From Bdellovibrionota bacterium (GTDB lineage: Bacteria > Bdellovibrionota_G > JALEGL01 > DATDPG01): a stretch of DNA of 64,000 nt. This document shows, piece after piece, positions 3,606 through 52,660 of this stretch. Positions within the stretch are counted from its first letter, which is position 1. Each line of letters starts with the position of its first letter. Location: positions 59,570 to 123,569 of the forward strand of contig DATDPG010000019.1 of assembly GCA_035292885.1 (NCBI GenBank). Reading direction: 5' to 3'. Both the position numbers and the translations under genes were made by a program. Below the pieces are notes generated by a model. It worked only from the letters and a program-made list of their open reading frames with translations. It did no database searches and was not told where the DNA came from.

Positions 3606-4115
3606 TTACTCAGCGGTTTTCAGATGGATGGTCTTCCGCTCAGTTTTGGCCGCGTCAGTCTTGGGGAGAAGAACCGACAAAACTCCTTTCTTAAATACGG
3701 CTTCCGCTTTATCGGCTTTCACCTCACAGGGAAGCGGAATCGAACGATAGAAAGATCCATAGGCTCTTTCAGCCCAGTAATAATCTTTCCGTTTCTCCTC
3801 GACCTCGGATTTCTTCTCGCCTTTGATGGTCAGCGTTTCGTTGGTGAGAGAAATCTCGATGTCCTTCTCGTCCACTCCCGGAAGTTCAGCCAACACCTGG
3901 ATATCCTTTTCGGTATCCTTGACGTCGATCTTCGGCGTGTAAGCCTCCACGCTCTCCGTCATGTAGCGGAATTGAGTTGGCATGAAGTCGCGATATAACT
4001 CGTCGAACATGCGGCTCATCAGGCGCGGCATAGCGAAGAACGGAGACTCTTCACCGAATCTCTTTCGAGGCGCTTGCGACTCTCGAAGAATCGGGATGAC
4101 ATTGGGTAGTGCCAT
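3606..4115 (-). CDS. Hsp20/alpha-crystallin small heat-shock protein
   Basis: 169 aa. Alpha-crystallin domain features (YTPKIDVKDTEKDIQVLAELPGVDEKDIEISL...GVLSVLLPK). Confidence 0.85.
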   Translation of the reverse strand: MALPNVIPILRESQAPRKRFGEESPFFAMPRLMSRMFDELYRDFMPTQFRYMTESVEAYTPKIDVKDTEKDIQVLAELPGVDEKDIEISLTNETLTIKGEKKSEVEEKRKDYYWAERAYGSFYRSIPLPCEVKADKAEAVFKKGVLSVLLPKTDAAKTERKTIHLKTAE

Positions 4116-4392
4116 TCAAGTCTCCTTTCTTTTCTTTGGTTGACGTTTGACAGCCCGTTACAACCCGCAAACTTTTTCTACGTCCGAAAAGAGAAAATTC
4201 ACTGACATGTGTCATGGTTTTTGATAAATATTAACATCAAATATGTGCCGTAATTTCAACGACGGCGGGCCGAATCGCAGGTAGCTGCACGAATCGCCAC
4301 GTCCTCCGTCCCTAGAACCGAAAAACCGTGAGACAAATCAGTTTTGTTTCTGGCGGGATGCGCAGAATGACTTCAATTACAAGGGAGGTCGT
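4116..4392. promoter_or_regulatory. AT-rich divergent promoter region (hsp20 / CBS gene)
   Basis: Local GC drop. Contains the imperfect inverted repeat ttgataaatattaacatcaa. No CIRCE element seen. An RBS (aagggagg) precedes the ATG at 4393. Confidence 0.3.
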
Positions 4393-4863
4393 ATGTCGAC
4401 GTATCGAGCTCGGGATATAATGAAGCGCGACGTCATGACCGTGCCGGAAGATATGACCGTTCGCGAACTCGCCACTTTTCTGATCGAAAACCAAATCAGC
4501 GGCGCCCCCGTGACCAATAAGAGGGGGAGGATCGTCGGCGTCGTATCGATGCGCGATATCGTTGGCGTGGACGTCGACCGGCCCGACTCGGTGTCCGGCT
4601 CGCGCAACCGCCCGGAATTTTACGACATGTCATGGGACAACATGAATTTGATCGACGAGGTTCCGCAGATGCACATTGAGCGGCAGGGCATGCTGGTCGG
4701 AGACGTCATGAATTCCGCGGTTTACAAGGTTCACCCCGACGCTCCGGTTCGAGACATCGCACAGACGATGCTCCAGGCGAAGATTCATCGGGTGATGGTC
4801 ATGAACGGCGGAGACCGTCTAGAGGGTATCGTCACGACGATGGATCTCCTACCTCTGATCTAG
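4393..4863 (+). CDS. CBS domain pair protein
   Basis: 156 aa with two CBS motifs (IVGVVSMRDIV, LEGIVTTMDLL). Confidence 0.75.
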   Translation: MSTYRARDIMKRDVMTVPEDMTVRELATFLIENQISGAPVTNKRGRIVGVVSMRDIVGVDVDRPDSVSGSRNRPEFYDMSWDNMNLIDEVPQMHIERQGMLVGDVMNSAVYKVHPDAPVRDIAQTMLQAKIHRVMVMNGGDRLEGIVTTMDLLPLI

Positions 4864-4953
4864 TTGATCACGCAAAAATAGCCTTGGGCTCCTGCCACCC
4901 AAGGCTATTTTTGTGTCAGCTTAGCCCGACTAGTTCCCCCTTGTATTACCGGA

Positions 4954-5430
4954 CTAGGCCGCTTCTTTTTCGGCGTTGTGGACCTGGAACTTATGCCACC
5001 GGACCGTGAGCACCGGGCACAGGGCGTTTCGCACCACCCTTTCGGCTACGCTGCCCATCACAAAGCGGTCGATTCCCGTTCGTCCGTGCGTTGACATCAC
5101 GATCCAGTCGGCTCCGGAGTCGTCCGCTTCGTCACAAATCATCTGCGGAACCGAACGATTCGTGGATACGACCACCGACGTCACCTTTACGGGCGCCTTT
5201 AACTCCTGAATGTACTTGTCCATTTCTTTCCGCGCCGTATCGTTTGTCTTTTGTTCCAGATTTCGTCCCGGCCAGAGCGAATCCTCGCCGTAGATCACCA
5301 AACCGCTCAAATCCCGGACGTGAACCAGGCGCAATTCGGCGTTAAAGGCTTTACATAACTCCATCGCTTGTTCGGCCGCTTCTTTTGAAGCATCGGAAAA
5401 ATCAATGGGTACCAAAATTTTCTGGATCAT
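4954..5430 (-). CDS. universal stress protein (UspA family)
   Basis: N-terminus KILVPIDFSDAS, ...DWIVMSTHGRTG...GSVAERVVRNALCPVLTV typical of USP. Confidence 0.8.
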   Translation of the reverse strand: MIQKILVPIDFSDASKEAAEQAMELCKAFNAELRLVHVRDLSGLVIYGEDSLWPGRNLEQKTNDTARKEMDKYIQELKAPVKVTSVVVSTNRSVPQMICDEADDSGADWIVMSTHGRTGIDRFVMGSVAERVVRNALCPVLTVRWHKFQVHNAEKEAA

Positions 5431-5875
5431 GGTCATGGGAGGCTCCTTTCTGTAGATTAAGTTTCTTTCCGAGCGCCGCCTGAACGAGGGCTACAAAATC
5501 GACCTCAGTGACGATTCCCACGAGCTTCCCGTTCTCAATTACCGGAAGGCAACCCACCTTCTCCTTAGCGATCAGTTCCGCGGCCATCTCGAGCGGCATA
5601 TCCGGACTTGCGGTTACGACATGGCTTCGCATCAGATCACGAACAGGAATGTGCGCGTTTAGATTCTTTTGATGATCGGGATGGGGATTCGCAAAACAAG
5701 AAATGGCCCCCCGCAATAGGTCCCGGTGAGTGACCAGGCCGACCAACCGACGATTGTCGTCGATGACGGGAATGTGGCGGATTCGATGCCATTTCATAAT
5801 CTCCTCCGCCATGTCGAGCGTTTGATTCTCGAGCAGTGTAAAGAGATTCGTGGTCATGATGTCGGAAACTTGCAT
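5402..5875 (-). CDS. CBS domain pair protein
   Basis: 157 aa with CBS motifs. Its 3' end overlaps the USP gene start. Confidence 0.75.
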   Translation of the reverse strand: MQVSDIMTTNLFTLLENQTLDMAEEIMKWHRIRHIPVIDDNRRLVGLVTHRDLLRGAISCFANPHPDHQKNLNAHIPVRDLMRSHVVTASPDMPLEMAAELIAKEKVGCLPVIENGKLVGIVTEVDFVALVQAALGKKLNLQKGASHDHDPENFGTH

Positions 5876-5983
5876 CGTATACCCAGAGATAGAATCCCGC
5901 TTCGGGCTCGGTATACTATGATCCCCATCATAGACGGATGACTGCAGCGCGTTAGAAAGAGAAATTCCTATAGGAGGTGTGAA

Positions 5984-6427
5984 ATGAGATGCAAAGATCT
6001 CATGAACGGCAACGTTCGTTTCTGCCGAGAATTAGACCCCATTCATCTCTGCGCAAAGCTGATGCGCGATCATAATATCGGTTTTGTCCCGGTTCTGGAT
6101 GTGAACGATCGGGCGGTTGGAGTGGTCACCGATCGGGACATTACGTGCCGCGTTGTGGCCGTACAAAAATCGTTCGCACTTCCGGTGCGCGAGATCATGA
6201 CGCGACATCTGTTATCGTGCGGCGCGGAAGACGAACTCGGGTACGCCGAGGCCAAGATGAGCCAGCAAAGAAAGTCGAGAATCCTCGTCATGAACGAGGA
6301 AGGCAAAGCGGTGGGCGTGATCAGTCTGTCCGATATCGCCCGTGCGGAGCCTCATCGGCGTTCCGGGCGCGTGCTGGAAGAAGTCACGCGCCGAGAGGGC
6401 AGTTCGCGCCCGGTCGTCGTGATCTGA
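5984..6427 (+). CDS. CBS domain pair protein
   Basis: 147 aa with CBS motifs (AVGVVTDRDI, AVGVISLSDIA). Confidence 0.75.
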   Translation: MRCKDLMNGNVRFCRELDPIHLCAKLMRDHNIGFVPVLDVNDRAVGVVTDRDITCRVVAVQKSFALPVREIMTRHLLSCGAEDELGYAEAKMSQQRKSRILVMNEEGKAVGVISLSDIARAEPHRRSGRVLEEVTRREGSSRPVVVI

Positions 6428-6489: not shown

Positions 6490-8175
6490 TCAAGAAGGAC
6501 CCGAAAACTGGCTGACGAGCGTTTCTAGTTGCTCTGGTTTCATCTCGAGATGCAAGCTGACGCTATGTTTCCGCTGGTCGACGGGCTGGCAGACGACAAC
6601 TTTTCCTTTCAATAGAATCCGCTGAAACGTGTGAGGAAGGTGGATTCGAACGAAAACCGTTTCACCGGTCTCTACGAAACGTTCCGACTCTATGAACATT
6701 CCGCCATGTTTCATGTTCCTTTCGAATTCCACCCGAAGCGCGTCGGCGGTCATAAAAAAAACATCCAGGACAACAAGATCAGGTTCATTTCGTTCCTGTT
6801 GTTCGGACGGGTCGTGGTCTTGAAGGTGGTTTTGGATGTAATGATTCAGAGCGGCAATGCCGGATTGTGGAATCTCCGTGAACCGGAGCGCGGCGAATGT
6901 TTTTTTGTCTTTCGAGACCTCATAAAGAAGCCGGCCGACGCCACGAACCTGGGCGTATCCGGCGCCCAGGTGAACGACGACGGGATATTCCTGCCCACGC
7001 CGGGGGACCAACCCTTCCCACTTTACGAGCATTCCGCCGCAACTTAGCTCGCGAACTTCGAATTGAACCTTTGCCCGCTGGACCGTGTCGATGAGGTCCG
7101 TTTGGATCGCCGCCGTTTCCGTGGAAATGCGCGGATGCTTTCGGCGGTCGGCTTGGGCGAGCAAAGATTCCAGATTGGAAGAAGCGTTGGCGGCAGCCCT
7201 ATCGGCTTTGTCCGAAGTTCGAAACTCATTCAATTTAGCCGTCCATTCTGCATCCAGGACTCGTAAGCGATTTGTAAAACGCTCATGAAAATAACCGGTT
7301 ACTTCCGTAAGTTCCGTCAACGGCTGCTGGGAAAAGTGAACGTGAAATAAATGCCGCTCAAACTCGTCCACGGTTTTGAAACGCATCTCCAGTTCTTTGC
7401 CCAATGCACGATTGAAAAAGATCCGAAGAACGTTTTCATCATTTGAGCTTCGAACCAGATCTTTGCAGGGAAGGCGAGGGATCGAACCCTCCTCGATCGC
7501 GCGCGTTAGGTCAATTTTGCTGGTCCCTTCGAAGGGGCGTTGACCGAAGAAGAGATAGAACGCCAAGACGCCAAGCGAGTAGATGTCCGTTCCGGTGCTG
7601 GGTGCCGCACCTTTGAAAACCTCAGGGGGAAGAAAAGCGAGCTTTCCAAAGTGTCGGTGTGTGGCATCGGCAAAGCTTTCCTGCCCGGCGCTTCCAAAAT
7701 CGACGATGCGGATCGTGCCGTCCTGAGCGATCATCACGTTGTCCGACGATAAATCGCCATGGAACAGAACGGAATTCGAGTTCTCAAAGATGGACGTTCG
7801 GTGAAGATAACGGAGGGCCTGGCAACAATCTCGGATCAAATAAAGGGAAAGCGGCAGGGGCACTTTTTGTCCCGCCTGCTGATAATCGTCGATCAGTTGC
7901 TGAACGCTTCCGCCAAGCAAAAGCTCCATGACCAGGAAGTACGTGTCGTTTATCCGTCCTTGATCGAGAATGGGAAGGATGTTGGGATGGCGCAATTTCG
8001 AACCGATCCGAACTTCACGAATAAAGTCCGCCACGGCCTGAGGTTCATGAACTCGTTCGGCTTTCAGGCATTTAACCGCATACGGCTGTTGATCCTTTAC
8101 TCCAAGGTAAACATTGGAGAGCCCCCCTTCGCCGATCTTGTGGATTAGATGGTATCTGCCGAGACGAGGGGGCAT
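6490..8175 (-). CDS. Ser/Thr-kinase-like domain fused to two C-terminal PilZ-like domains
   Basis: N-terminal kinase fold (GEGGLSNVY, AVKCLK, VDFGSA) with an atypical catalytic loop HGDLSSDN. C-terminal RKHPRISTE...ELSCGGMLV and ERNMKHGGMFIE PilZ-type motifs. Confidence 0.65.
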   Translation of the reverse strand: MPPRLGRYHLIHKIGEGGLSNVYLGVKDQQPYAVKCLKAERVHEPQAVADFIREVRIGSKLRHPNILPILDQGRINDTYFLVMELLLGGSVQQLIDDYQQAGQKVPLPLSLYLIRDCCQALRYLHRTSIFENSNSVLFHGDLSSDNVMIAQDGTIRIVDFGSAGQESFADATHRHFGKLAFLPPEVFKGAAPSTGTDIYSLGVLAFYLFFGQRPFEGTSKIDLTRAIEEGSIPRLPCKDLVRSSNDENVLRIFFNRALGKELEMRFKTVDEFERHLFHVHFSQQPLTELTEVTGYFHERFTNRLRVLDAEWTAKLNEFRTSDKADRAAANASSNLESLLAQADRRKHPRISTETAAIQTDLIDTVQRAKVQFEVRELSCGGMLVKWEGLVPRRGQEYPVVVHLGAGYAQVRGVGRLLYEVSKDKKTFAALRFTEIPQSGIAALNHYIQNHLQDHDPSEQQERNEPDLVVLDVFFMTADALRVEFERNMKHGGMFIESERFVETGETVFVRIHLPHTFQRILLKGKVVVCQPVDQRKHSVSLHLEMKPEQLETLVSQFSGPS

Positions 8176-8220
8176 CTTCGATGCATTATACCCCCGCTTA
8201 AGACGGAGAGGATATCGTAC

Positions 8221-9888
8221 TTAAACGTAGTTCAGATACGTCGGCCGGTACTGTTTGGCCTGAACGAAGCTCGGAATATCGGACGGCTTCGGTTCTCGCG
8301 CAAGCTCCCGCCGATGAGCGATCTCCATAACGGCCCCTGCAATAGCCGCCGAGACTTCCCGGATTTTCGATAGAGGCGGATAAATCGATCCACGCTCCAG
8401 GTCCTCCTTCGATACGTGCTGCGCCAACGTCTTCGCCGAGGCGAAAAACATTTCATCCGTCACGAATCTTGCTCCGCTAAGAACGACGCCCAAGCCGACG
8501 CCGGGGAAAATGTACGCGTTGTTTCCCTGGCCGGGAGCGAAACGCTTGCCTTCGTACGTCACCGGATCGAACGGACTGCCGCTGGCGAAGATCGCCCTCC
8601 CTCGGGTGTGAACGTATGCTTCTTCGGCCGTACATTCCGCCTGGGAGGTCGGATTCGACAGAGCAAATACGACCGGCCGCTCGTTGAGCTTGGCCATTTC
8701 TTCCAATATCTCCTTGGTAAACTGCTTCGGATGACCCGATACGCCCACAAGCGCCGTCGGTCGCAATGAACGAACGGCCTGGAAAAGATCCGCCATCGGC
8801 GCGTGGGAATGTGCGTACGGACGTTTATGTTCCTGAAGATCTTTGCGAGAGCTTTCTACGAGTCCCTTGGAGTCGACGAACCAGCATCGTGATATCGCTT
8901 CCGGTTTGGCTAACCCGCCCTCCATAATCGCGCTGACGATCAAGTCGCCGATCCCGATGGCGGCTTCACCCGCTCCATGCATCAAAATTGTCTGGTCCGT
9001 CAGCTTTTTCTGCGTGATCTTCATGGCCGAATAAATTCCCGCCACGGTTACGGCGGCGGTTCCCTGAATGTCGTCGTTGAAGCAGCAAACCCGCTCCCGG
9101 TATTTGTTCAAAAGCCGGAAAGCGTTGTGATTGGCGAAGTCCTCGAATTGAAGAAGGGCCTTCGGGAAGATATCCTGGACCGCACTGACGAACTCTTCTA
9201 TGAGATCGTCGTATTCCTTCCCTTTCAATCTTGGCGCTTGCGTTCCCAAATAGAGCGGATCTTTCAAGAGTTCCTGATTGTTCGTGCCGACGTCCAGCGT
9301 GATCGGCAGCGATTGCCTGGGGTGGACGCCCGCGCACGCGGTGTAGAGGGCCAGTTTTCCCACCGGAATCCCCATGCCGTTGGCGCCCAGATCACCCAAA
9401 CCGAGGATTCGCTCGCCGTCCGTCACGACGATGACGCGAACATCCTTCTCCGGCCAATTTTTGAGAACTTGGCGGAAGCGGCTGCGTTCATGGCGGGTGA
9501 GGAACATGCCGCGCGACCGCCGGAAGATATGGCCGTACAGCTGGCAAGCCTTTCCCACGACGGGCGTGTAAATAACCGGCATCATCTCTTCGATGTGATC
9601 TTGAATGACGCGGTAGAAAAGGGTCTCGTTCCGGTCTTGGAGACCTCCCATATGAATGAATTTCTCGAGTTCATTCGGTTTTTTTCGGTAGTTTTCCAAG
9701 ACTCGAGCCACCTGTTCGTCTTGCGAACAGATCCGGGGAGGTAGAAGCCCCTCCAGGCCGAGTCTTCGCCGTTCATCGGCGGTGAATGCCGTGCCTTTGT
9801 TCAACCCCGGGTCGTGAAGCAGTTCGTCACCCGTATAGGCGACGCGAAGCGTGTGCTCATCCAGGGATCGATGTTTGCTCGATGACAT
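8221..9888 (-). CDS. NAD(P)-dependent malic enzyme
   Basis: 555 aa. Malic enzyme signatures (FNDDIQGTAAV, GAGEAAIGI, VFALSNPT). Confidence 0.9.
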   Translation of the reverse strand: MSSSKHRSLDEHTLRVAYTGDELLHDPGLNKGTAFTADERRRLGLEGLLPPRICSQDEQVARVLENYRKKPNELEKFIHMGGLQDRNETLFYRVIQDHIEEMMPVIYTPVVGKACQLYGHIFRRSRGMFLTRHERSRFRQVLKNWPEKDVRVIVVTDGERILGLGDLGANGMGIPVGKLALYTACAGVHPRQSLPITLDVGTNNQELLKDPLYLGTQAPRLKGKEYDDLIEEFVSAVQDIFPKALLQFEDFANHNAFRLLNKYRERVCCFNDDIQGTAAVTVAGIYSAMKITQKKLTDQTILMHGAGEAAIGIGDLIVSAIMEGGLAKPEAISRCWFVDSKGLVESSRKDLQEHKRPYAHSHAPMADLFQAVRSLRPTALVGVSGHPKQFTKEILEEMAKLNERPVVFALSNPTSQAECTAEEAYVHTRGRAIFASGSPFDPVTYEGKRFAPGQGNNAYIFPGVGLGVVLSGARFVTDEMFFASAKTLAQHVSKEDLERGSIYPPLSKIREVSAAIAGAVMEIAHRRELAREPKPSDIPSFVQAKQYRPTYLNYV

Positions 9889-13937: not shown

Positions 13938-15126
13938 CCGCCGTTTGATCGATGTTCGAATTGATTTCGCCGTTTACGCCGAGCTCAAGTCCCCATCGCC
14001 ATGCGTACAAGCATCCCAGGCCGGTGTGAAGAGCGTAATCTTCCGACCCGGTCACCTTGTCATATCGAGCGACGGCGAAAGATCCTCTGGCCCGCCATCC
14101 GAGCGAGATCTGTTTTTCGAGCGAGCTCGTGAATCCTCCGGATCGTCCGCCGTAACTATCCTGAAAGAATGCTCGGACGGAGGCGATCCAGGGGCGAACC
14201 CCCTCGATCCATTGAAACCCGCCATCCACCATATGGCCGTCCTCGGATCGGGTGGTCAGAACTTCATAACGTTGAAAACTGTACCCCGCCTGAACCGAAA
14301 GTTTCGAAGAGACTCGGTACGCCGCTGCACCTCTCCCTTGCCATTCCTCCCCCTGGGAAAAGAGCGTAAAAATCCGGTCCTGCCATTCGAAATTATCGCG
14401 GGATTCGTTGTATCGGGCGAACTCTCCGGAGAGGAGCAAGGCATCCATGGGGAAGAGTTCAAGTCCTGCACGACCTGATCCGAAAAGGGTTTTGTCCGCC
14501 AGGTAATCGATCGAACCATATAATAGAGGCGTCCAAAAAAACGGGAGCGCTTGTTTGGCTCCGGCCACGATCCATTGCCGGTGGACTGTCTCCAGATCGT
14601 CTTCATACCGATACCCCATCGTCAGTGTGGTCGAGGAGAACGGTTGCAGCGTCAGGTCGGCGCCGATCAACGTGGATTCTTCGTCGAAATCGGAAATTTC
14701 AGGATGCCTTCGCAAGCCGCCGAAGAGACGTCCCGATATTCGTCTCCGGGTACCCAGAGAAACTTGCGCGCCGTCGAGAAGGATCAGCGACTCGAACGGG
14801 TTCGCCAGAAATCTCCCCGCCTGGGCGTTCATTCCCCATTCGGGCCGATTCCACGAAACACTCGCTTGGTAAAGATCGGCCTTGTTGTCCGGATTTATCA
14901 GATTGGACAAAATCTGGCCGTCCATTGAAAATTCCCCTTGCAGCGGGGAAATTGGGGCGCTCAGGCGAAGGCGATTCACCCACGGGAGTTCCCGGTCTCC
15001 GATCAGATTTTCCCGGATCTGATTATACGATCTGAGTTCGACGGTCGGACCGGCCCAAGAGAGTGTTGGAGCAAGAATGACCATCCATCCCAGCGTCCGA
15101 TACACCCCTCGAAAAAGAAATGGCAT
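13897..15126 (-). CDS. outer-membrane beta-barrel protein, candidate porin of a porin-cytochrome conduit
   Basis: 409 aa. Signal peptide. Alternating beta-strand pattern. C-terminal aromatic YVYF. Located immediately upstream of the heptaheme cytochrome gene. Confidence 0.55.
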   Translation of the reverse strand: MPFLFRGVYRTLGWMVILAPTLSWAGPTVELRSYNQIRENLIGDRELPWVNRLRLSAPISPLQGEFSMDGQILSNLINPDNKADLYQASVSWNRPEWGMNAQAGRFLANPFESLILLDGAQVSLGTRRRISGRLFGGLRRHPEISDFDEESTLIGADLTLQPFSSTTLTMGYRYEDDLETVHRQWIVAGAKQALPFFWTPLLYGSIDYLADKTLFGSGRAGLELFPMDALLLSGEFARYNESRDNFEWQDRIFTLFSQGEEWQGRGAAAYRVSSKLSVQAGYSFQRYEVLTTRSEDGHMVDGGFQWIEGVRPWIASVRAFFQDSYGGRSGGFTSSLEKQISLGWRARGSFAVARYDKVTGSEDYALHTGLGCLYAWRWGLELGVNGEINSNIDQTADVRVGVSARYVYF

Positions 15127-15215
15127 ATGGATATTTTAGTGTTCGTCTCCCGAAGAATAAGAACCATGATATGCATCATGCCGGGATAATTCCCGTCAAG
15201 GGCATGATCAAAGAA

Positions 15216-16301
15216 ATGCGCGCTCGGCATCCATTGGGGTTGTGGAGTCTTATTTTCACGTTGCTGAGTGTTTCCCCGGCGCTGGCGGAAAAGGAGAAAC
15301 CTAAGAGCGGCTGTATCGCCGAGGGATGCCATGCCGTTCTCATGAACGCGAAAGTCGTGCATTCGGCGATCGAGGATGGCGCATGCGACGGATGCCATAC
15401 ACCTTCGGAGGGGAGCAGTCCCGACCAGGCGGGTGCCAAACATAAATTCGAGAAGATCGACGTCGGCCAGGCCTGCGGAGATTGCCATGAGGCCGCGAAA
15501 GACAAATCGATTCACAAGCCGTACGGCGAAGCGAAGTGCACCGCTTGCCACAATCCGCACTCGTCCGACCAGCCGGCTTTGTTGCGGGAAGAGTCGCCGG
15601 CACTTTGCCAGCCATGCCACGAAAAGATCGCCGCAATTTCCTCGCGAGGTTCGAGCGATCATCTGGTGGCCGACGGAAAACTCGCCTGCCTGAGCTGTCA
15701 CGAAGGTCACCTGTCGAAAATACCGAAACTTCTCCGAAAATCGCCGAAAGAACTCTGCTTGGGATGTCACAACAAGGAAATCTCGACACCTCAGGGAACT
15801 CTGGTCGATATCGCCGGTAAGCTCACCGACAAAAAAGCGACCGTCCATGACCCCGTCGCCGATGGGTGCGTCTCTTGCCATAATCCGCATGGGAGCGAAC
15901 TCCCGCGGCTCCTCGTCCGTTCGTATCCGACGGCCTGGTACGGCAATCCATCGATTTCTGCGTACGGCCTCTGTTTTGAGTGCCATGAAGCGGCCGGTTT
16001 TGAAGCCAAGGAGACCGAGGAGGGGACGGCGTTTCGAAACGGCAAGAAAAATCTCCATGCGGTCCACATCTTGAACGATCCGCTGGGCCGCTCCTGTTCC
16101 GCCTGCCACGACGTGCATGCGGCGGCGGGAGAGCACCTCATTCCGTCGCAAGTTCCCTTTTTCGGTTTCTTGGTTCCCACGAATTTCAAGACGGCGGAGA
16201 ACGGCGGCAGCTGTTTCCCGGGTTGCCATGAAGCGAGAGCCTACGATCGCTTGGAGGCTGTGCCTCTATCTAAGCCGGACTCGGGACACCCGAAACCTTA
16301 A
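15216..16301 (+). CDS. secreted multiheme c-type cytochrome (9 CxxCH plus CX3CH and CX4CH variants)
   Basis: Signal peptide MRARHPLGLWSLIFTLLSVSPALA. Nine canonical CxxCH motifs plus CFPGCH and CIAEGCH. Divergent from the porin gene. Confidence 0.75.
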   Translation: MRARHPLGLWSLIFTLLSVSPALAEKEKPKSGCIAEGCHAVLMNAKVVHSAIEDGACDGCHTPSEGSSPDQAGAKHKFEKIDVGQACGDCHEAAKDKSIHKPYGEAKCTACHNPHSSDQPALLREESPALCQPCHEKIAAISSRGSSDHLVADGKLACLSCHEGHLSKIPKLLRKSPKELCLGCHNKEISTPQGTLVDIAGKLTDKKATVHDPVADGCVSCHNPHGSELPRLLVRSYPTAWYGNPSISAYGLCFECHEAAGFEAKETEEGTAFRNGKKNLHAVHILNDPLGRSCSACHDVHAAAGEHLIPSQVPFFGFLVPTNFKTAENGGSCFPGCHEARAYDRLEAVPLSKPDSGHPKP

Positions 16302-16406
16302 GAACCAAACGGCATCCGGTCAAAATAGTTTCCGTACGAGAACTGATACAAATCATGGTTCACAAGGAGGCGTTCTGTTCTCCTAATTCTAGTAACCGGA
16401 ATTCAT

Positions 16407-16910
16407 TTGGAACCGAACGGAAGATGGCTTTTGTATGCGTGTTGTTGCGTAGGGTCGGCACTGATCGTCTCCGGATGTCAGAGCGGGAGCGGTCAGCCGA
16501 TTCAATACAATCATAAAGTTCACGTGGAAGAGGCGGGAATGGATTGCGTGTCGTGCCACGTCAACGTCCAGAGCGGCGCCCGCGCCACGATTCCGAACAT
16601 CGACGTATGCCAGGATTGCCATTCCGAGGAGCCTTCGGCGGATAAAACGGAACTGAAGAAGTTATTCTCTTATACTTCGTCGAATAAAAAGATTCCTTGG
16701 CGGAAGGTTTACCGTGTGGACGCGCATATCTTTTTTTCGCATCGAAGGCACGCGGTTCTCGGGAACATTTTGTGTGAAACATGTCACGGAAAGGTTGGGG
16801 AGAAAATGACTCCGGTGACCGGACGGGCCGTGGCCATCACGATGAAAGGTTGCATGGATTGCCATGAGAAGAGGGGGGTAGCTAATGACTGCCTTCTTTG
16901 TCACCGGTGA
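16407..16910 (+). CDS. pentaheme c-type cytochrome lipoprotein (ActA/QrcA/NrfB-like)
   Basis: Five CxxCH motifs. Lipobox IVSGC. TTG start inferred. First gene of the CISM-type module. Confidence 0.7.
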   Translation: MEPNGRWLLYACCCVGSALIVSGCQSGSGQPIQYNHKVHVEEAGMDCVSCHVNVQSGARATIPNIDVCQDCHSEEPSADKTELKKLFSYTSSNKKIPWRKVYRVDAHIFFSHRRHAVLGNILCETCHGKVGEKMTPVTGRAVAITMKGCMDCHEKRGVANDCLLCHR

Positions 16911-16939
16911 GGCGGAGCGGACAGGAGACCTGAAACGAC

Positions 16940-19444
16940 ATGGCGAATATTGACCGAAGAAAATTCCTGAAGATCCTCGGCGCGAGCGCGACTGGAACGG
17001 CGCTGGGGGGTACGGCAACGGGCGCCATGGCCTGGCTTTGGAAGGTCCCGGACCACCTAATTGAAGAAGCGTTGCGTGGACCCGGGTTCGAGACGTTCAA
17101 GAATTCCGTCTGTCAATTGTGCCCGGCGGGTTGCGGCATACGGGTCCGACTGATCGATAACATCCCCGTCCGGATCGACGGGAATCCGACACACCCGATC
17201 AATCGTGGAGGCATCTGCCCGCAGGGCGCGGCCGGCCTCGATTTTCTGTTCCATCCCGATCGGATTCAGACGCCGCTCATCCGTGTGGGGCCGAGGGGGA
17301 AGGGGGAATTCAAAGCGATCGGTTGGGACGAGGCGCTGGGCAAATTGGCTGAACGTTTGGGAACCCTACGACAGAAAAGAACCCCCGAGCAGCTGGCCTG
17401 CTTCGTTTACGAAAAACGCGGGTTGATGCACGAAACGATCGGTCGATTCATGGACGGATTCGGATCGCGAAATTTGATCGCAACGGACGACGGGGAGCAC
17501 GATTATCTGCCCTATCAGCTCCTCTTCGGCTGGAAGAACCTGCCGGCGTACGACATCGAGAATGCGCGCTACCTGCTGAGTTTCGGCGCGAACATTCTGG
17601 ACGACGGCGTTTCTCCGCTGCACGCGATTCACGGATACCGGAAAATGAGGGAAGGCGCCGCCGGGGAACGGGGAAAGTTTGTTTTCGTGGATTCCCGGCA
17701 TTCCGTGACCGCCGCCAGCGCGGATGTTTATCTGCCGATCCTGCCCGGAACCCACGGAGCGTTTGCGCTTGCCGTGGCGTATGTGTTGATCAAAGAACGG
17801 CATCTCGATACGGCGTTTCTCCGCGACCACGTCGACGGCTTTGAGTCCTGGACCGACGACCGGGGGAATCGTCACGCGGGCTTCAAGGACTATGTCCTCG
17901 CGGACTTCTATCCCGAACGCGCCGCGAAGATCACCGGAGTTCCCGCGGAGAGAATCATCGACGTGGCCCGGAACTTCGGAAGAACGCGCCTGTCGTTGGC
18001 AGTCGTGGGAAATTTGGGCACCGATACGACCAACGGCCTCTGGAACGCGCTCGCGGTTCTCTCGCTGAACGTTCTCGTCGGGAATATCGAAACCAAGGGG
18101 GGCCTTCTTGTTCCGCGGGCGGCACCGTTTTCAAAACTCCCGGTCGTTCGTCCGGATGAAATCGCGAAGCGAGGGCTGAACAAACCTCTCCTCTTCGAAG
18201 CCGAGAATCGCCAGGCTCCCTTGGTTTCCGACTCCATGGGCCTCGCGTGCGAACGGATGGCCAAAGGCGAACCGTATTCCATCGATACGCTCTTGGTCTA
18301 TGGCACCAACCCTGCGTTTGACCACCCGTACGCGAAGAGTGTTCGCAAAGCGCTCGAGAAGATTCCGTTCATCGTCTCGTTTTCGGGAATTCGGGACGAG
18401 ACTGCGGAATATGCCGATCTGATCCTCCCCGATCATGCGTTTCTCGAAAAATGGTTCGATAGTGCCGACACGCCCGGCATCAAGTTCGCTCACGCGTCGG
18501 TCGGTTCCCCGGTAGTGAATCCCCTTTATCAAACCCGGCACACGGGAGATGTCCTGACGGAAGTTGCGGCGAAGCTGGGAGGGAGTGTGGCCCAGGCATT
18601 TCCACAATCGGATTTCCTTTCGGCCTTGCAGCAAAAGTTCAAGGGGATTTTCGCTTCCGGCGAGGGAACCGTCGTATCGGGCTCGTTCGAGGAATCGTGG
18701 GCGCAGTTCCTTAAAGAGCGGGGCTGGCAGAACCTCGTCTACGAGTCCTTCGAAGGTTTCTGGAAGGTATTGGCGGAGCGCGGCGGGTGGTGGGATCCGA
18801 CGCAGGATGTGATGTCTATCAAAGAAGCGATTCAGACGCGCACGGGGAAAATTATGCTCCGGCTCGACGAGCTTCAATCCAAAGCAAGTGAAGCGGCACG
18901 ATCCGTGGGTAAGGAAAATACCTCCCCTGAAGCCGCAAGCCGGATACTGGCTGCCTGGGGAATTCGAGAAACCGCTGACGCCGCCTTTCTTCCACACTAC
19001 GAGGAGCCCACGTTCACGGGCGAAGTAAAAGAGTTCCCGTACGTGTTGGTCACGTTCGGCTTGCTTTCAAATCGCAGAGGTTTCGGCTCATTTTCGCCGT
19101 TGCTCCAGGAAATGTTTGGTTATCCCGAGCGGATTTACTGGGATTCTTGGGTGGAATTGAATCCCCATACGGCGCACGAGCATCATCTTGTTTCGGAAGA
19201 CTGGGTGAAAATCTCGTCGCCGGCGGGGTCGCTTCGCGCGCGGGTTGTTTTCAATGAAGCGTTGGAGCCCCATACGGTGGCCGTACCGTTCGGCATGGGT
19301 CATACGTCCGGCGGGCGTTACGCCAAGGGCGTGGGTGTGAATCCCTATGAGATTCTGACGGAAGTGAGCGACGTCTTGCGGGGAAAGCCGGCGAAAGTCG
19401 CGACGCGCGTGAAAATTGAGAAATCCGAAAGGAAGGTCCGCTAA
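16940..19444 (+). CDS. TAT-exported molybdopterin-oxidoreductase-family large subunit (PsrA/ActB1/QrcB-like)
   Basis: Twin-arginine signal DRRKFLKILGASATG. N-terminal CQLCPAGCGI...GGICPQG [4Fe-4S] motif. 834 aa of MopB fold. RBS acaggag. Confidence 0.85.
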   Translation: MANIDRRKFLKILGASATGTALGGTATGAMAWLWKVPDHLIEEALRGPGFETFKNSVCQLCPAGCGIRVRLIDNIPVRIDGNPTHPINRGGICPQGAAGLDFLFHPDRIQTPLIRVGPRGKGEFKAIGWDEALGKLAERLGTLRQKRTPEQLACFVYEKRGLMHETIGRFMDGFGSRNLIATDDGEHDYLPYQLLFGWKNLPAYDIENARYLLSFGANILDDGVSPLHAIHGYRKMREGAAGERGKFVFVDSRHSVTAASADVYLPILPGTHGAFALAVAYVLIKERHLDTAFLRDHVDGFESWTDDRGNRHAGFKDYVLADFYPERAAKITGVPAERIIDVARNFGRTRLSLAVVGNLGTDTTNGLWNALAVLSLNVLVGNIETKGGLLVPRAAPFSKLPVVRPDEIAKRGLNKPLLFEAENRQAPLVSDSMGLACERMAKGEPYSIDTLLVYGTNPAFDHPYAKSVRKALEKIPFIVSFSGIRDETAEYADLILPDHAFLEKWFDSADTPGIKFAHASVGSPVVNPLYQTRHTGDVLTEVAAKLGGSVAQAFPQSDFLSALQQKFKGIFASGEGTVVSGSFEESWAQFLKERGWQNLVYESFEGFWKVLAERGGWWDPTQDVMSIKEAIQTRTGKIMLRLDELQSKASEAARSVGKENTSPEAASRILAAWGIRETADAAFLPHYEEPTFTGEVKEFPYVLVTFGLLSNRRGFGSFSPLLQEMFGYPERIYWDSWVELNPHTAHEHHLVSEDWVKISSPAGSLRARVVFNEALEPHTVAVPFGMGHTSGGRYAKGVGVNPYEILTEVSDVLRGKPAKVATRVKIEKSERKVR

Positions 19445-20131
19445 ATGCCGCGATGGGGAATGGTGATCGATCTCGATAAGTGCACCGGCTGCGGCGCTTG
19501 CGTGGCCGGGTGCAAAGTGGAGAACAATGTCGCCGTCGGCTCGGCTGAACTCGGGCGGGAAAACCGAGCCATGTTCTGGATGGAGATGGTGAAGTTCGTG
19601 GAAGGGGAACACTATCCCGATGTGCGGATTCGGTACGTGCCGCGGCCTTGCTTTCAATGCGACAACCCACCGTGCACCCGTGTTTGTCCCGTCCGCGCGA
19701 CGTATCTCTCCGATGAGGGGATTGTGGCCCAAATCTACGCCCGCTGCATCGGATGTCGCTATTGCCAAGCGGCCTGCCCGTACACCGTCAAGTCTTTCAA
19801 CTGGTACGAGCCGAAGTGGAGCCAAGAACGGTCCAGTTGCTTGAATCCCGATGTGTCTCAGCGGCCGAAAGGGGTCGTGGAGAAGTGCACGTTTTGTCAC
19901 CACCGCCTGCAGGTGGCGCGGGAGAAAGCACGGGCCGAAAACCGATCTCTCCGCGAGGAGGATTACAAAGTGGCTTGCCAGGACGCCTGTCCGGCCGGAG
20001 CGATATTGTTCGGAGACTTGGAAGACAAGTCGACGCAGGTGTTCAAGCTCAGCAAGAGTCCGCGTGCCCAACGTCTCATGGAAGATCTCGGAACCGAGCC
20101 GAAGGTCTTCTACCTTTCGAGGGGAGGATGA
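19445..20131 (+). CDS. 4x[4Fe-4S] ferredoxin-type electron-transfer subunit (PsrB/NrfC/ActB2-like)
   Basis: Four Cys clusters (CTGCGACVAGC, CFQCDNPPC, CIGCRYCQAAC, CTFCHHR). The start abuts the MopB stop. Confidence 0.85.
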   Translation: MPRWGMVIDLDKCTGCGACVAGCKVENNVAVGSAELGRENRAMFWMEMVKFVEGEHYPDVRIRYVPRPCFQCDNPPCTRVCPVRATYLSDEGIVAQIYARCIGCRYCQAACPYTVKSFNWYEPKWSQERSSCLNPDVSQRPKGVVEKCTFCHHRLQVAREKARAENRSLREEDYKVACQDACPAGAILFGDLEDKSTQVFKLSKSPRAQRLMEDLGTEPKVFYLSRGG

Positions 20132-20132
20132 C

Positions 20133-21485
20133 ATGAAAGCCCGGCCGGAAGATCTGGGAGCGGAGGAACATCTCCTCAAACCGCTTCATCGGGTTTCCCC
20201 GAAGCTTCTCGTTCTTTGCGGCCTGCTTTTCCTGGCGGTTCTCAACATGCTCTTCGCCTTCGCGGGACAGGTTTGGTTCGGTCTCGGTGTCACCGGAATG
20301 AATCAGCCGGTGACGTGGGGTTTCTATATCGTCAACTTCGTCTTCTTCATCGGGATCAGCCACGCGGGGACGCTCATTTCCGCGATCCTGCGCTTGTCAC
20401 AGGCTGAATGGAGGCGGCCCATCACGCGAATGGCGGAAGTCATTACGGCCCTCGTTCTTGCGATCGGCGGTATCCAGCCGATCATCGATCTGGGAAGGCC
20501 GGACCGGGTCTTCAATATCTTTACGTCGGGCAGACTCCAGTCGCCGCTTTTGTGGGATGTGACGTCGATATCGGCCTATTTTATGGCCAGCACGGTCTTT
20601 CTCTATTTGCCCCTCATTCCGGATATCGCGCTTCTTCGGGACCGGGGAGGAAAGCTTCGCTGGGCCTACGACCTGATGTCCTGGGGATATCGCGGGACGG
20701 AACGCCAGAAGCACGTGCTGGAACGAGCCATGACGATCATGATGATCATTGTCATCCCGATCGCCGTATCCGTTCATACGGTGATCTCCTACATCTTCGC
20801 CATGACGATTCAGCCGGGGTGGCACAGCACGATCTTCGGCCCTTATTTCGTGTGCGGGGCGATCTTTTCCGGAATCGCGGCGCTCTTGATCGTCATGATC
20901 GCCTTTCGGAAGGCCTATCACCTGGAGGACTACTTAAAACCCATTCACTTCTCCTACCTGGGACAACTTCTTTTGATCATGTCGCTCCTCTGGTTTTACT
21001 TCACGTTTTCGGAATACCTTACGGCCTTCTTCGGGAACGAACCGCAGGAACTTCGTGTCGTGAATTATAAATTTACGGGGGCATACTGGCCGCTCTTCTG
21101 GGGGATGATCGTCGCGAACTTCGTCATTCCGGTGGCTCTTTTGAGTTCACCCAAAATCCGAACCATCCCGAACATCTTGGTGGCGTCGATCTGCGTGGTG
21201 ATCGGAATGTGGCTGGAGCGATTAAACATCGTGGTTCCGTCGCTCGCGAATCCGAGGCTCCCATACGCGACGGGCTTCTATATTCCCTCGTACACCGAAT
21301 GGTCCCTTTTCTTAGGGATGGCGGCGCTTTTCGTCTTGATGTTCATCGGCTTCTCCAAGTTTTTCCCGCTCATCTCGGTTTGGGAAATTCAGGAAGGGAG
21401 GACGCACGGCGTGAAAGAGGTGACCGAAAGGGTCGAGAGCTACCTTCCTCCGATGGCGCTCGAAGGAAAGGGGCGGGATTCATGA
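20133..21485 (+). CDS. NrfD/PsrC-family polytopic membrane quinol-interacting subunit (ActC-like)
   Basis: 450 aa with about 10 TM helices. NrfD-like. RBS gaggggagg. Start placed 2 nt after the FeS-subunit stop; ORF 19851..21485 is an upstream extension of this gene. Confidence 0.85.
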   Translation: MKARPEDLGAEEHLLKPLHRVSPKLLVLCGLLFLAVLNMLFAFAGQVWFGLGVTGMNQPVTWGFYIVNFVFFIGISHAGTLISAILRLSQAEWRRPITRMAEVITALVLAIGGIQPIIDLGRPDRVFNIFTSGRLQSPLLWDVTSISAYFMASTVFLYLPLIPDIALLRDRGGKLRWAYDLMSWGYRGTERQKHVLERAMTIMMIIVIPIAVSVHTVISYIFAMTIQPGWHSTIFGPYFVCGAIFSGIAALLIVMIAFRKAYHLEDYLKPIHFSYLGQLLLIMSLLWFYFTFSEYLTAFFGNEPQELRVVNYKFTGAYWPLFWGMIVANFVIPVALLSSPKIRTIPNILVASICVVIGMWLERLNIVVPSLANPRLPYATGFYIPSYTEWSLFLGMAALFVLMFIGFSKFFPLISVWEIQEGRTHGVKEVTERVESYLPPMALEGKGRDS

Positions 21486-21715
21486 CGAAAAAGAAAATTC
21501 TTTTTTTCAGCCAGCTCGTCTCTCTGGCGGGGATCTGGGTCTTCGTCTTGGGAATCAGCGTCTGGATTCTCCATCTCATCCGGATGGCCAACAAGCTTCA
21601 TGACGCTCCGACGGCGTCCGTATCGATCAGCCTGGTGGCCATTCCCGTCTTTCTCACAGGCGCGAGCGTGCTGACATATGTCTTCGTCGGCATACAGAGA
21701 GGTGGAAAGGAATAA
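21482..21715 (+). CDS. small two-TM membrane protein, translationally coupled (ActD-like position)
   Basis: ATGA overlap with the NrfD stop. 77 aa with two hydrophobic helices. Confidence 0.45.
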   Translation: MTKKKILFFSQLVSLAGIWVFVLGISVWILHLIRMANKLHDAPTASVSISLVAIPVFLTGASVLTYVFVGIQRGGKE

Positions 21716-21719
21716 TGCG

Positions 21720-22931
21720 ATGAACGGGCGGATTCCGATGGCCGTGTTCACCGTCGTTTTGGGCGCATCCTTCATGCTCGGCGGCTTCGCTCGGAGTGAG
21801 GAGGAGAATTGGCTTCCATCGGAGCCGCTCAAGGGGCGAGTTGTCTTCGAGCAAAAGCACTGCCCGCAGTGCCATTCGATCGGAGGCGCGAAAGGCGGGG
21901 TCGGTCCCGATTTAGCCGAAGCGGGAACGTATTTTCACGGGAGCTTTCTCCAGCTCTCATCCATTTTATGGAACCACATTCCGGACATGCTGGTGGAATA
22001 CAAAACGCGAAATCTTTCTTGGCCGAGTTTCTCCGAGGACGAGGTCGGCTATCTGATTTCCTATCTGTACTATCTGCGATACTTGGGAAGCCCGGGCGAT
22101 GTCGCCAACGGCCAGCGCCTCCTCCAGACGAAAGGGTGCGTCGCCTGTCATGCCGTCGGGAAACAAAAAAAGGCGGGGGACGCGCCTCCGCTGGATCAGC
22201 TCAAGAAATATGTTTCGCCGCTCTACCTGGTGCAGGCGGTTTGGAATCACGGGCCCCGGATGCAGCGGATGATCGAACAAAAGGGAATCAAGCGGCCGAC
22301 ATTCGACGGTCAGGAAATCAGCGACATGAGCGCGTACATCCGCAACGTAAGCCGCTGGAACACCGAGGAGAAAGTGTATCTCTCCCCGGGCGATCCGAAG
22401 AACGGAGAACGGGTGTTTGAAAGCAAGGGGTGCGTCAAGTGTCACTCCGAACAAAGGGGGAGGAAGCGGGCGCCGTCGCTGGAGAAGTCGAGCCTGAATG
22501 AGAGCGCGGCGGGCATCGCGGCGCTGATGTGGAACCATGCGGATGTCATGATGAGTTCGATGAAAGAGGAGAAAATCAGCTGGCCGACGTTCGAAGGGCG
22601 CGAGATGCCCGATCTGGTCGCATACCTGTTCTTTCTGGATTTTCTGGAACCGCCGGGAAACGCCGCAAAGGGCAAGGAGCTATTCGGCCAGAAACAATGT
22701 TCCTACTGTCATTCGATCCACGGAGCCGGGGGTACCATCGGACCCGATCTCGCGGTCGTCGGTTCTCTTTCCTCCACCCGGTCGATCCTCCGGATGATGG
22801 TGAATCACGCGGAAAACATGTCGGAAGCCGTCCTGGGCGCCGGGAAAGCCTGGCCGGTTCTGGGCGGTGACGAGATGAATAACATCTTCGCGTACTTAAA
22901 AAGCGTCGAACGGAAAGAAAAAAAGAAATAG
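21720..22931 (+). CDS. tetraheme cytochrome c built of four class-I cytochrome c domains
   Basis: Signal peptide. Four CxxCH motifs, each followed by GPDL and a distal MWNH motif (candidate Met ligand). RBS ggaaagg. Paralog of the gene at 37130..38365. Confidence 0.75.
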   Translation: MNGRIPMAVFTVVLGASFMLGGFARSEEENWLPSEPLKGRVVFEQKHCPQCHSIGGAKGGVGPDLAEAGTYFHGSFLQLSSILWNHIPDMLVEYKTRNLSWPSFSEDEVGYLISYLYYLRYLGSPGDVANGQRLLQTKGCVACHAVGKQKKAGDAPPLDQLKKYVSPLYLVQAVWNHGPRMQRMIEQKGIKRPTFDGQEISDMSAYIRNVSRWNTEEKVYLSPGDPKNGERVFESKGCVKCHSEQRGRKRAPSLEKSSLNESAAGIAALMWNHADVMMSSMKEEKISWPTFEGREMPDLVAYLFFLDFLEPPGNAAKGKELFGQKQCSYCHSIHGAGGTIGPDLAVVGSLSSTRSILRMMVNHAENMSEAVLGAGKAWPVLGGDEMNNIFAYLKSVERKEKKK

Positions 22932-38365: not shown

Positions 38366-38516
38366 CTCGTCGTTTCTTGTGAGATTAAAGCCCTGCTCCG
38401 TTTATCTCATGCATGACAAGAGGGTGAACGGCTGTATATGATTTAGATCAGCTGCCGGCGGACAACCGTCTGGAGAGCAATCGACGTTGCGCTCGTGGGG
38501 TCGGCCACGAGACAAG

Positions 38517-38768
38517 CTACTTTGCGGTGCCTTTCTTCCGAAAGATTCGAATAGGAGTTCCCAGCTTGTATAGCTCGCCCACTTTGCAGATGTCTTCGCA
38601 TTGGACGGAGATGCTCGCGCCCACGACTTTTTCGACGTCCGGGATTTCCTCCCATTCCTCCTCCAGGCCGCTGATTTCGGTCGCGACGCGGTCGAGTGTT
38701 GCGTCCGGAACGAGCTTTCCGAAGTGTTTCGTCAAAACCGTTCGGATTTTATCGGCGTCCCGGGGCAT
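38517..38768 (-). CDS. small hypothetical protein
   Basis: 83-aa ORF between the cytochrome and vapC genes. No motif. Confidence 0.2.
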   Translation of the reverse strand: MPRDADKIRTVLTKHFGKLVPDATLDRVATEISGLEEEWEEIPDVEKVVGASISVQCEDICKVGELYKLGTPIRIFRKKGTAK

Positions 38769-51973: not shown

Positions 51974-52660
51974 ATGGGCCAGAACGAACGACGAATCCAC
52001 ACACGGCTTCAGCTGAGCGAGGAGGTCCGGGCCTCCACTCCCAAAGGCTTTCTGACAGGCTACCTCCGAGATGTCTCCAAAGGGGGCGCGGGAGTCGTCT
52101 TCGAAGAGAGCGTCGGGGATGTCGGGGAAACGATCGAGATTTTTCTCCCCTTCCCCGGCGGCGTGGAGATCGCCGTGATGGCGGAGATTGTCCGAATCCA
52201 AGAAACCCAGGGCGGTCTCTTGCACGGCCTCTGCTTCAGCCTCGTTGAACCTTCGATGCAGGAAAAACTTCTGACGCTCGTCGAGACCCTCCTCGCCGGA
52301 TCGGGGGGAAAGCGACGGGAGCACCCGCGCGTCTCCAAGAGAATTCCGATCCGCTACGGGAACCAGGCGGAGTTTCAAGCCGGCCTCCAAACGATCTCCA
52401 TGGGTGGGTTGTCGATGATGATCGACACTCCCGTGGTTCTCTTCCAAGAGGTCGAAGTCTCCATTCCGGACGTCAGCGGTCGCGAACTTCTCATCCTCCC
52501 CGCCCGGGTGATCTACCAGCACAACCTCGAGAAAAGTGGAAAGAAGCAGTATGAGGTCGGTCTTCAGTTCCGTGAACTGACGGGTCCGCAGAAGGCCTGC
52601 CTCGCCGAACTCCTCCGCTACGTGATGGATACACCGGCCGACGCCACAGGTTCCAAGTGA
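51974..52660 (+). CDS. tandem PilZ-domain protein (putative c-di-GMP receptor)
   Basis: RRIHTRLQL...DVSKGGAGV and RREHPRVSKRIP...TISMGGLSM motifs. Confidence 0.6.
   Translation: MGQNERRIHTRLQLSEEVRASTPKGFLTGYLRDVSKGGAGVVFEESVGDVGETIEIFLPFPGGVEIAVMAEIVRIQETQGGLLHGLCFSLVEPSMQEKLLTLVETLLAGSGGKRREHPRVSKRIPIRYGNQAEFQAGLQTISMGGLSMMIDTPVVLFQEVEVSIPDVSGRELLILPARVIYQHNLEKSGKKQYEVGLQFRELTGPQKACLAELLRYVMDTPADATGSK

Follow-up and report, generated by a model that had tools for sequence, protein, structure and literature searches.

Can a bacterial Hanks-type kinase whose catalytic loop reads HGDLSSDN still work as an enzyme, and do the two PilZ domains fused to it place it under the control of cyclic dimeric guanosine monophosphate (c-di-GMP)? 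This question is raised by a reverse-strand gene in a 64-kb stretch of DNA (64,000 nucleotides of contig DATDPG010000019.1, assembly GCA_035292885.1; hereafter, the window) from a bacterium assigned to the Bdellovibrionota. Its 561-aa product is identical to the NCBI entry "protein kinase [Bdellovibrionota bacterium]," which derives from a metagenome-assembled genome (MAG), and the coordinates of the open reading frame (ORF) and its motifs, collected in Table 1, were confirmed by re-translation. An original prediction, made from the sequence by itself, had offered two possibilities, a c-di-GMP-gated kinase or a pseudokinase scaffold. The reading favored here, with a confidence that falls a little short of even, is an active kinase of the non-RD type (that is, without the Arg of the HRD motif) in which c-di-GMP bound at the linker preceding the first PilZ domain governs activity or targeting. 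The architecture, folds, motifs, and conservation described below are what was shown for the protein and its relatives.

The N-terminal 270 to 290 residues align end to end with the kinases StkP, PknB, PknA, PAK1, and MARK in phmmer searches of PDB sequences, and the Pfam Pkinase profile matches residues 8 to 226 with an E-value of 1.5e-36 (126.6 bits; cutoff 31.7). Both the profile match (PF00069) and the catalytic triad of a Hanks Ser/Thr kinase are present. In the AlphaFold2 (AF2) model, most of the kinase domain scores above 85 in the predicted local distance difference test (pLDDT), and the activation segment is modelled poorly. The linker that follows contains a long helix (residues 298 to 321) bearing an invariant Trp (W311) and then a low-complexity stretch. 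Beyond it, the Pfam PilZ profile matches in two stretches (E = 2.6e-10; 41 bits, cutoff 22.5), here termed PilZ-1 and PilZ-2; TIGR02266, which describes a paralogous PilZ-like domain of Myxococcus, scores 28.2 bits, below its cutoff of 68.7. No transmembrane segment is predicted in the AF2 model of the 561-aa protein, and the kinase is read as soluble and cytoplasmic.

The catalytic loop is where the protein departs from the Hanks consensus. In a phmmer alignment against PDB sequences, HGDLSSDN lies opposite HRDLKPQN of Streptococcus pneumoniae StkP, column for column, with Arg replaced by Gly, Lys by Ser, and Pro by Ser. Because this alignment is exact, the loop is judged to be genuine and not a misreading, and the loss of Arg and Lys from HRDLKPxN that the original prediction had described was borne out. 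Its reading of intact GxGxxS, AVK, and DFG motifs was likewise upheld: in the StkP alignment, the domain keeps the G-loop GEGGLSNV, the AVK Lys (K35), the αC Glu (E54), the catalytic-loop Asp and Asn (D141 and N146), and the DFG motif (residues 159 to 161). Also kept are an APE-like PPE (residues 183 to 185), the αF Asp (D197), and the αH/I Arg (R265). With neither the HRD Arg nor the catalytic-loop Lys, the loop departs from canonical HRDxKxxN; this places the kinase in a non-RD, Lys-less subgroup that stays within the Hanks superfamily. Between helix αE and the loop lies a short family-specific insert in which F130, S133, and L137 are nearly invariant and the pLDDT falls below 50.

Conservation bears directly on how this loop should be read. 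Twenty full-length relatives of 529 to 580 aa, which share the Pkinase plus PilZ architecture at 32% to 48% identity, make up the orthologue set, and four representatives found later bring the family set to 24; all are uncultured Bdellovibrionota. K35, E54, H139, G140, D141, N146, D159, G161, D197, and R265 are invariant in the 20 orthologues, while the APE Glu (E185) is present here but not invariant. The loop reads HGD[LVIF][S/A]xxN in every one of the 24 family members, with invariant His, Gly, Asp, and Asn. The canonical HRDxKxxN is found in approximately 90% of the 100 kinases that come next in similarity, and two other kinases of the window read HRDIKPxN; since these two carry the usual residues, the variant is not a genome-wide artefact. 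The variant loop is a family trait, not a lesion of one gene. Because all 24 members share HGDx[S/A]xxN, purifying selection on the loop, alongside an otherwise complete catalytic apparatus, is indicated.

The loop also recurs outside the family. A pattern scan for L[FY]HGD[LI]S[PS]xN, in which each GTDB species was represented by a single genome, recovered seven full-length loci of the family, each in a Bdellovibrionota-type MAG, and about 15 further kinases that carry HGD[LI]S[PS]xN. The latter are mostly short proteins of the Bdellovibrionales (330 to 450 aa), and the remainder come from Mycobacteriales, Holophagae, Parachlamydiales, Lachnospiraceae, and Bifidobacterium. Many of the short kinases (loci L017 and L019-L032) have no PilZ domain, keep the canonical Thr of the P+1 loop, and are not closely related to the PilZ-fused family by overall similarity. 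The query kinase domain scores 115 to 130 bits against canonical HRDxK kinases versus 40 to 70 bits against other HGDLSPxN kinases, a comparison biased by the choice of the canonical set for its similarity to the query. Inheritance of the loop from a common clade of HGDLSP kinases was rejected on this comparison, in which, bias included, the query stands nearer to the canonical kinases. The HGD loop probably arose more than once, or the lineages that carry it diverged long ago. Judged by its distribution, HGDLSxxN is a conserved, recurrent working configuration in Bdellovibrionota kinases. Literature searches with the motif strings HGDLSP, HRDVSP, ExSxxG, and QxSxxG returned nothing relevant.

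A second substitution is found in the P+1 loop, where Lys178 occupies the position of the canonical "GT/GS" Thr or Ser (GT/GS-xx-Y-x-x-P-E). Lys is present there in 22 of the 24 family members, which points to a family trait, and the residue is possibly compensatory. In a first sample, all kinases with a Lys-less loop had Lys or Arg at the "GT" position, with the exception of P0005, and all three non-family kinases without the catalytic-loop Lys showed "GK." Among independent HGDLSPxN kinases from GTDB, Thr was found in all six readable P+1 loops.

How such an enzyme would be regulated is suggested by two positions. In bacterial kinases, the Arg of an "RF" motif in helix αC touches the phosphorylated activation loop (bioRxiv 10.1101/2025.01.12.632604); here this position is Asp (aDFiRE). 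As both the HRD Arg and the αC Arg are gone, switching by activation-loop phosphorylation would not be expected, and we infer an enzyme that is not turned on in this way.

The C-terminal module offers a candidate for control. PilZ-1 and PilZ-2 were cut from the family alignment and the profile of each was searched against PDB sequences. PilZ-1 matches c-di-GMP binders, namely the PilZ domains of YcgR (E = 0.02) and Alg44 (E = 7e-5), with ELSxGG aligned to DLSAGG of Alg44, and its AF2 model is that of a PilZ fold, a six-stranded β-barrel with a C-terminal helix (pLDDT ~90). Foldseek comparison of the C-terminal model with the PDB retrieved YcgR, MotI, PlzA, Alg44, MapZ, MrkH, and XAC1133, and the matches to PilZ-1 include c-di-GMP-bound structures. 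The domain carries the RxxxR motif as RKHPR (context RRKHPR); both of its Arg residues (R345 and R349) never vary within the family, H347 and P348 hardly do, and the family context is RRxHPR. Residues 342 to 345 around this motif are predicted to be disordered (pLDDT <50), and because conservation within a disordered linker is explained most simply by ligand contact, such contact is suggested. The second motif, ELSCGG, retains the hydrophobic residue, the Ser, and the Gly of the canonical motif and has Glu at the D/N position, so that PilZ-1 lacks a strict [D/N]hSxxG of canonical PilZ domains (PF07238). With the canonical binders Alg44, YcgR, MotI, and MapZ, PilZ-1 has in common its fold, RxxxR, and two residues of the second motif (Ser and Gly); the kinase family differs from them in having Glu or Gln at the D/N position. 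Since PA2989 binds c-di-GMP with Ser at that position (Galperin and Chou, bioRxiv 10.1101/814665), Glu or Gln there need not disqualify the domain, and PilZ-1 is a probable c-di-GMP site.

PilZ-2 is of a different kind. Its profile matches only the Xanthomonas PilZ protein of type IV fimbriae assembly (4f48, 3dsg, 3cnr, and 7lkq; E = 4.5e-5). It has no RxxxR, its second motif is NMKHGG, with Lys in place of Ser (N-h-[K/R/S/Q]-H-G-G across the family), and in the AF2 model of residues 336 to 561 (pLDDT 85.3), a helix (model residues 142 to 151) replaces strand 2. Absence of RxxxR and replacement of strand 2 by a helix are features of the divergent xPilZ domains of XAC1133/PA2960 type (bioRxiv 10.1101/814665), to which PilZ-2 conforms in both respects and in its profile match. 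PilZ proteins of the XAC1133 type stand alone (~115 aa) and interact with PilB and with the EAL domain of FimX rather than with c-di-GMP, whereas PilZ-2 forms the C-terminal end of a kinase; no pilus genes were seen among the ORFs scanned in the 64-kb window. These likenesses in sequence and model make it probable that PilZ-2 serves to dock other proteins. Between PilZ-1 and PilZ-2, hhalign finds only a distant relationship (E = 1.2e-4), and the arrangement of the two is not that of the YcgR-like two-domain receptors: here, a canonical-like PilZ is followed by an xPilZ and RxxxR precedes both, whereas YcgR-like proteins have an xPilZ followed by a PilZ with RxxxR in between. The original prediction of two PilZ-like c-di-GMP-binding domains therefore stands as to fold; as to binding, it probably holds for PilZ-1, with its RKHPR and near-canonical ELSCGG, and is not supported for the second domain. 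Gating by c-di-GMP, likewise, fits the invariant RxxxR and binder-like form of PilZ-1 but not PilZ-2.

When a tandem-PilZ profile was run in a full HMMER search over 1.84 billion representatives, 1798 matches were obtained at E ≤ 0.001 but just 12 at E ≤ 1e-30. Kinase fusions of 530 to 580 aa account for about ten of these 12, and the kinase-PilZ-xPilZ family is thus small. Weaker matches are ordinary tandem PilZ proteins or fusions with receiver, Hsp70-like, DUF4388, or NTF2-like domains. A number of giant proteins of 2000 to 5200 aa (P0126, P0129, P0133, P0138, P0145, and others) each gave 9 to 19 repeated matches to profile positions ~24 to 64, within the PilZ-1 region.

Fusions of a Hanks kinase with PilZ, which the original prediction had proposed to look for, turned up in three forms: Pkn1, the proteins P0058 and P0045, and the small Bdellovibrionota family itself. 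Pkn1 of Myxococcus xanthus, which was the first Hanks kinase to be described in bacteria, carries a PilZ domain at its C-terminus (PMC8316039; PMC8844925; bioRxiv 10.1101/814665). Like Pkn1, the protein described here is soluble and joins an N-terminal Hanks kinase to C-terminal PilZ-family sequence, and both hosts belong to predatory, formerly "delta-proteobacterial" lineages. However, Pkn1 has one PilZ domain, reported to be without the binding motifs, while the query has two, the first with an intact RxxxR. Neither Pkn1 (MXAN_1467) nor any Myxococcus name appeared among the top 120 homologues, a comparison made by name. In the metagenomic proteins P0058 and P0045, an N-terminal PilZ domain is followed by a cyclic nucleotide monophosphate (cNMP)-binding domain and then the kinase, and the PilZ motifs of P0058 are canonical (REWPR and NRSEGG). 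These proteins differ from the query in that their PilZ domain is single and N-terminal, a cNMP-binding domain intervenes, and their catalytic loop, HQDIKxxN, keeps the Lys. Kinase-PilZ fusion as such is already known; what is new is the combination of a Lys-less, non-RD kinase with a PilZ domain bearing an intact RxxxR and an xPilZ domain of the XAC1133 type.

Under the favored reading, the protein would most likely be a catalytically competent Ser/Thr kinase with an active site wired differently from the canonical one, and control would come from its C-terminal module instead of activation-loop phosphorylation. RRxHPR lies in a predicted flexible linker between the C-terminal helix of the kinase and the barrel of PilZ-1; c-di-GMP would be clamped between this motif and the barrel face that bears [E/Q]LSxGG, by analogy with YcgR, PlzD, and Alg44. 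Clamping would hold the PilZ module in a set position against the kinase C-terminal helix (residues 298 to 321, with W311). PilZ-2 may then provide a docking surface that recruits a substrate or partner, or it may fold back onto the kinase. From the observed features we infer catalysis and ligand binding, as well as the direction in which the ligand acts. A bolder claim is unlikely: in it, this family would provide the first case of a Hanks-type Ser/Thr kinase under direct gating by a cyclic dinucleotide (c-di-GMP or possibly 3',3'-cyclic GMP-AMP [3',3'-cGAMP]), built on a rewired non-RD, Lys-less site with a P+1 Lys. Another dinucleotide such as 3',3'-cGAMP comes into consideration because Glu or Gln occupies the base-reading position family-wide; 3',3'-cGAMP is made by Bdellovibrio and Myxococcus. 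No demonstrated case of a c-di-GMP-regulated Hanks kinase emerged when the literature was searched for c-di-GMP, Hanks-type, and PilZ together.

Several points weigh against a c-di-GMP-controlled, active kinase. Loss of the catalytic-loop Lys (K168 of protein kinase A [PKA]) usually reduces activity, and the idea that a relocated Lys compensates for it failed as a general rule because the six independent HGDLSPxN kinases keep Thr in the P+1 loop. The second motif of PilZ-1, [E/Q][LI][S/G]xGG across the family, is off-consensus throughout: the D/N position is Glu in 14 of the 20 orthologues and Gln in six, never Asp or Asn, and three orthologues have Gly for the motif Ser. Elsewhere, Glu or Gln is rare at this position, accounting for 9 of about 166 generic PilZ domains (74 Asp, 71 Asn, 6 Glu, and 3 Gln among matches to RxxxR...xhSxxG). 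None of 40 long ORFs scanned in the 64-kb window encodes a GGDEF, EAL, HD-GYP, PP2C, or FHA domain, and the neighbours of the gene differ in every orthologue locus examined, so that the neighbourhood is not conserved. Finally, the PilZ domain of Pkn1, the closest characterised fusion, is reported to have no c-di-GMP motifs (PMC8316039; PMC8844925).

These points feed different rival explanations. Were the kinase active and neither PilZ domain able to bind a nucleotide, the tandem module would serve as a protein adaptor or localisation device. An adaptor role is predicted for Pkn1 and shown for the XAC1133 PilZ, PilZ-2 is clearly of the non-binding type, the PilZ domain of Pkn1 is without binding motifs, and PlpA is reported not to bind although its motifs are present (PMC8316039). 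This explanation nevertheless struggles with RRxHPR, whose invariance in a predicted disordered linker at 32% to 48% identity is hard to explain without a ligand. Moreover, a Ser at the D/N position does not keep PA2989 from binding c-di-GMP, and Glu and Gln would preserve the hydrogen-bonding chemistry of Asp and Asn; on balance, we regard a purely adaptor-like module as doubtful, though a serious contender. A pseudokinase scaffold, in which the altered loop abolishes phosphotransfer and signalling proceeds by nucleotide-dependent conformation alone, would accord with the missing catalytic-loop Lys and HRD Arg, the 8-residue insert before the loop, and the poorly modelled activation segment. 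It is nonetheless quite improbable, since the triad, Asn146, D197, and R265 are invariant, an APE-like motif is kept, and the same loop recurs in many other kinases. In the bacterial Ser/Thr kinase (bSTK) atlas, a pseudokinase is recognized by loss of the VAIK-Lys, HRD-Asp, or DFG-Asp (bioRxiv 10.1101/2025.01.12.632604), and all three residues are present and invariant here. The scaffold alternative of the original prediction is disfavored by this definition and by the invariance of the catalytic residues in the 20 orthologues.

The recurrence of the loop extends beyond Hanks kinases. HGDLxxxN is also the loop of RIO kinases (HGDLSEYN), Bud32 (HGDLTTSN), and APH(3') enzymes (HGDLGDSN), all of which turn over ATP; as in the query, Gly follows His, Lys is absent, and the Asp and Asn are kept. 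That active enzymes use this loop, a likeness seen here as weak local profile matches, is a further argument against a dead kinase. It also raises the possibility that the protein is an ATPase or a small-molecule kinase with RIO-, Bud32-, or APH-like chemistry, in line with local matches at residues ~130 to 165 to the APH, RIO1, Bud32, Fructosamin_kin, and Choline_kinase profiles of Pfam and NCBIfam. However, these matches span just 30 to 40 residues around the loop, and all fall below cutoff except APH, which is barely above it (25.1 bits, cutoff 23.2, residues 130 to 164 only; RIO1 reaches 13 bits, cutoff 22). No whole-domain match to RIO, Bud32, or APH profiles was found in Pfam or NCBIfam. 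Unlike those families, the query has a full-length Hanks-type protein kinase domain that matches Pkinase throughout and aligns with StkP, PknB, and PAK1, including the APE, αF, and αH/I elements typical of kinases with protein substrates, and small-molecule chemistry is therefore very improbable.

The genomic surroundings add little to the case for any partner. A 45-bp gap separates the kinase gene from a malic enzyme gene upstream of it, and the kinase gene converges on a gene for a CBS-domain protein within a CBS/Usp/Hsp20 cluster; the stress and sensor genes at 3606-6427 form a compact cluster adjoining the kinase. A perfect TATAAT is found in the 45-bp gap, 9 nt upstream of the kinase ATG, and the kinase mRNA could be near-leaderless. 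A promoter scan found no full -35/-10 match, and the promoter and terminator scan gave nothing above shuffled background. Orthologue loci were inspected by called genes in five cases and by tblastn in ten. A conserved operon or partner was rejected, as the only recurrent neighbours were a penicillin-binding protein (PBP) gene and a pair of HD_5 and HEAT-like genes, each in 2 of 10 loci. The class A PBP gene is directly upstream of the kinase in both of its loci (L001, 5513-8008; L034, 3774-5795) and overlaps the kinase start in L001, while the HD_5 (HD-GYP-type) gene and a 579-aa HEAT-like gene lie nearby in L002 (14544-17731) and L034 (9282-12511). Neither the PBP gene nor the HD_5/HEAT-like pair is present in the window.

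Elsewhere in the window, the two paralogous kinases with HRDIKPxN loops both have a long hydrophobic N-terminal half and are separated by a transporter gene. Many multihaem cytochrome c genes occur at 15120-22931 and 37130-49262, and the same regions contain genes for molybdopterin oxidoreductase, NrfD-like, and cytochrome b proteins. Such a cytochrome-rich respiratory repertoire is unexpected for a MAG labelled Bdellovibrionota. The stand-alone tandem-PilZ protein that the original prediction had pointed out is real. Its first domain is canonical, with RIHTR and DVSKGG, and its second has REHPR and TISMGG, in which Thr takes the D/N position. The gene lies between genes for an unannotated 446-aa protein and glutamate dehydrogenase and is unlinked to the kinase. 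A close paralogy of this protein with the kinase C-terminus was rejected (BLASTP E = 0.003, over ~50 residues of the RxxxR segment).

Table 1. Features of the kinase-PilZ gene and of other genes in the 64-kb window (positions are those of the window)
Feature	Position	Strand	Residues or description	Evidence
Hsp20 gene	3606-4115	-		
CBS pair gene	4393-4863	+		
Usp gene	4954-5436	-		
CBS pair gene	5402-5875	-		
CBS pair gene	5984-6427	+		
Whole gene, kinase-PilZ-xPilZ protein	6490..8175	-	561 codons, ATG start	
PilZ-2, divergent xPilZ	6508..6780	-	residues 466-556	profile vs PDB, AF2 secondary structure
Second motif of PilZ-2, NMKHGG	6700-6717	-		
PilZ-1	6820..7170	-	residues 336-452	profile vs PDB, Foldseek, invariant Arg
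Second motif of PilZ-1, ELSCGG	7033-7050	-		
RxxxR of PilZ-1, RKHPR	7129-7143	-	residues 345-349	
Helical linker	7171..7311	-	residues 289-335	conservation and AF2 model
Hanks-type Ser/Thr kinase domain	7348..8154	-	residues 8-276	Pfam, StkP/PknB alignment, invariant columns, AF2
P+1 loop and APE region, FGKLAFLPPE	7621..7650	-	residues 176-185	family alignment
Catalytic loop, HGDLSSDN	7738..7761	-	residues 139-146	StkP alignment, family conservation
Family-specific insert (~8 residues), IFENSNSVL	7765..7791	-	residues 129-137	gap vs StkP, conservation
TATAAT	8185-8190	-		
Malic enzyme gene	8221-9888	-		
Paralogous kinase gene	26428-28017	+	~527 aa, HRDIKPxN	
TLC/MFS-type transporter gene	28004-30256	-	750 aa; between both ~527-aa kinases	
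Paralogous kinase gene	30270-31850	-	~527 aa, HRDIKPxN	
Multihaem protein with PKD-like domain	45720-49262	-	1180 aa	
Stand-alone tandem-PilZ protein	51974..52660	+	228 aa from ATG	Pfam E=5.6e-26, two stretches

In bacteria, c-di-GMP acts on histidine kinases, transcription factors, flagellar brakes, and polysaccharide synthases. The kinase described here is a reasonable candidate for an enzyme under second-messenger control, and its family provides a compact, soluble, single-polypeptide test case for control of a Hanks kinase by c-di-GMP. Should c-di-GMP binding fail, the protein would merely be another uncharacterised bacterial kinase with adaptor domains. The conserved HGDLSxxN loop matters for automatic pseudokinase calls.

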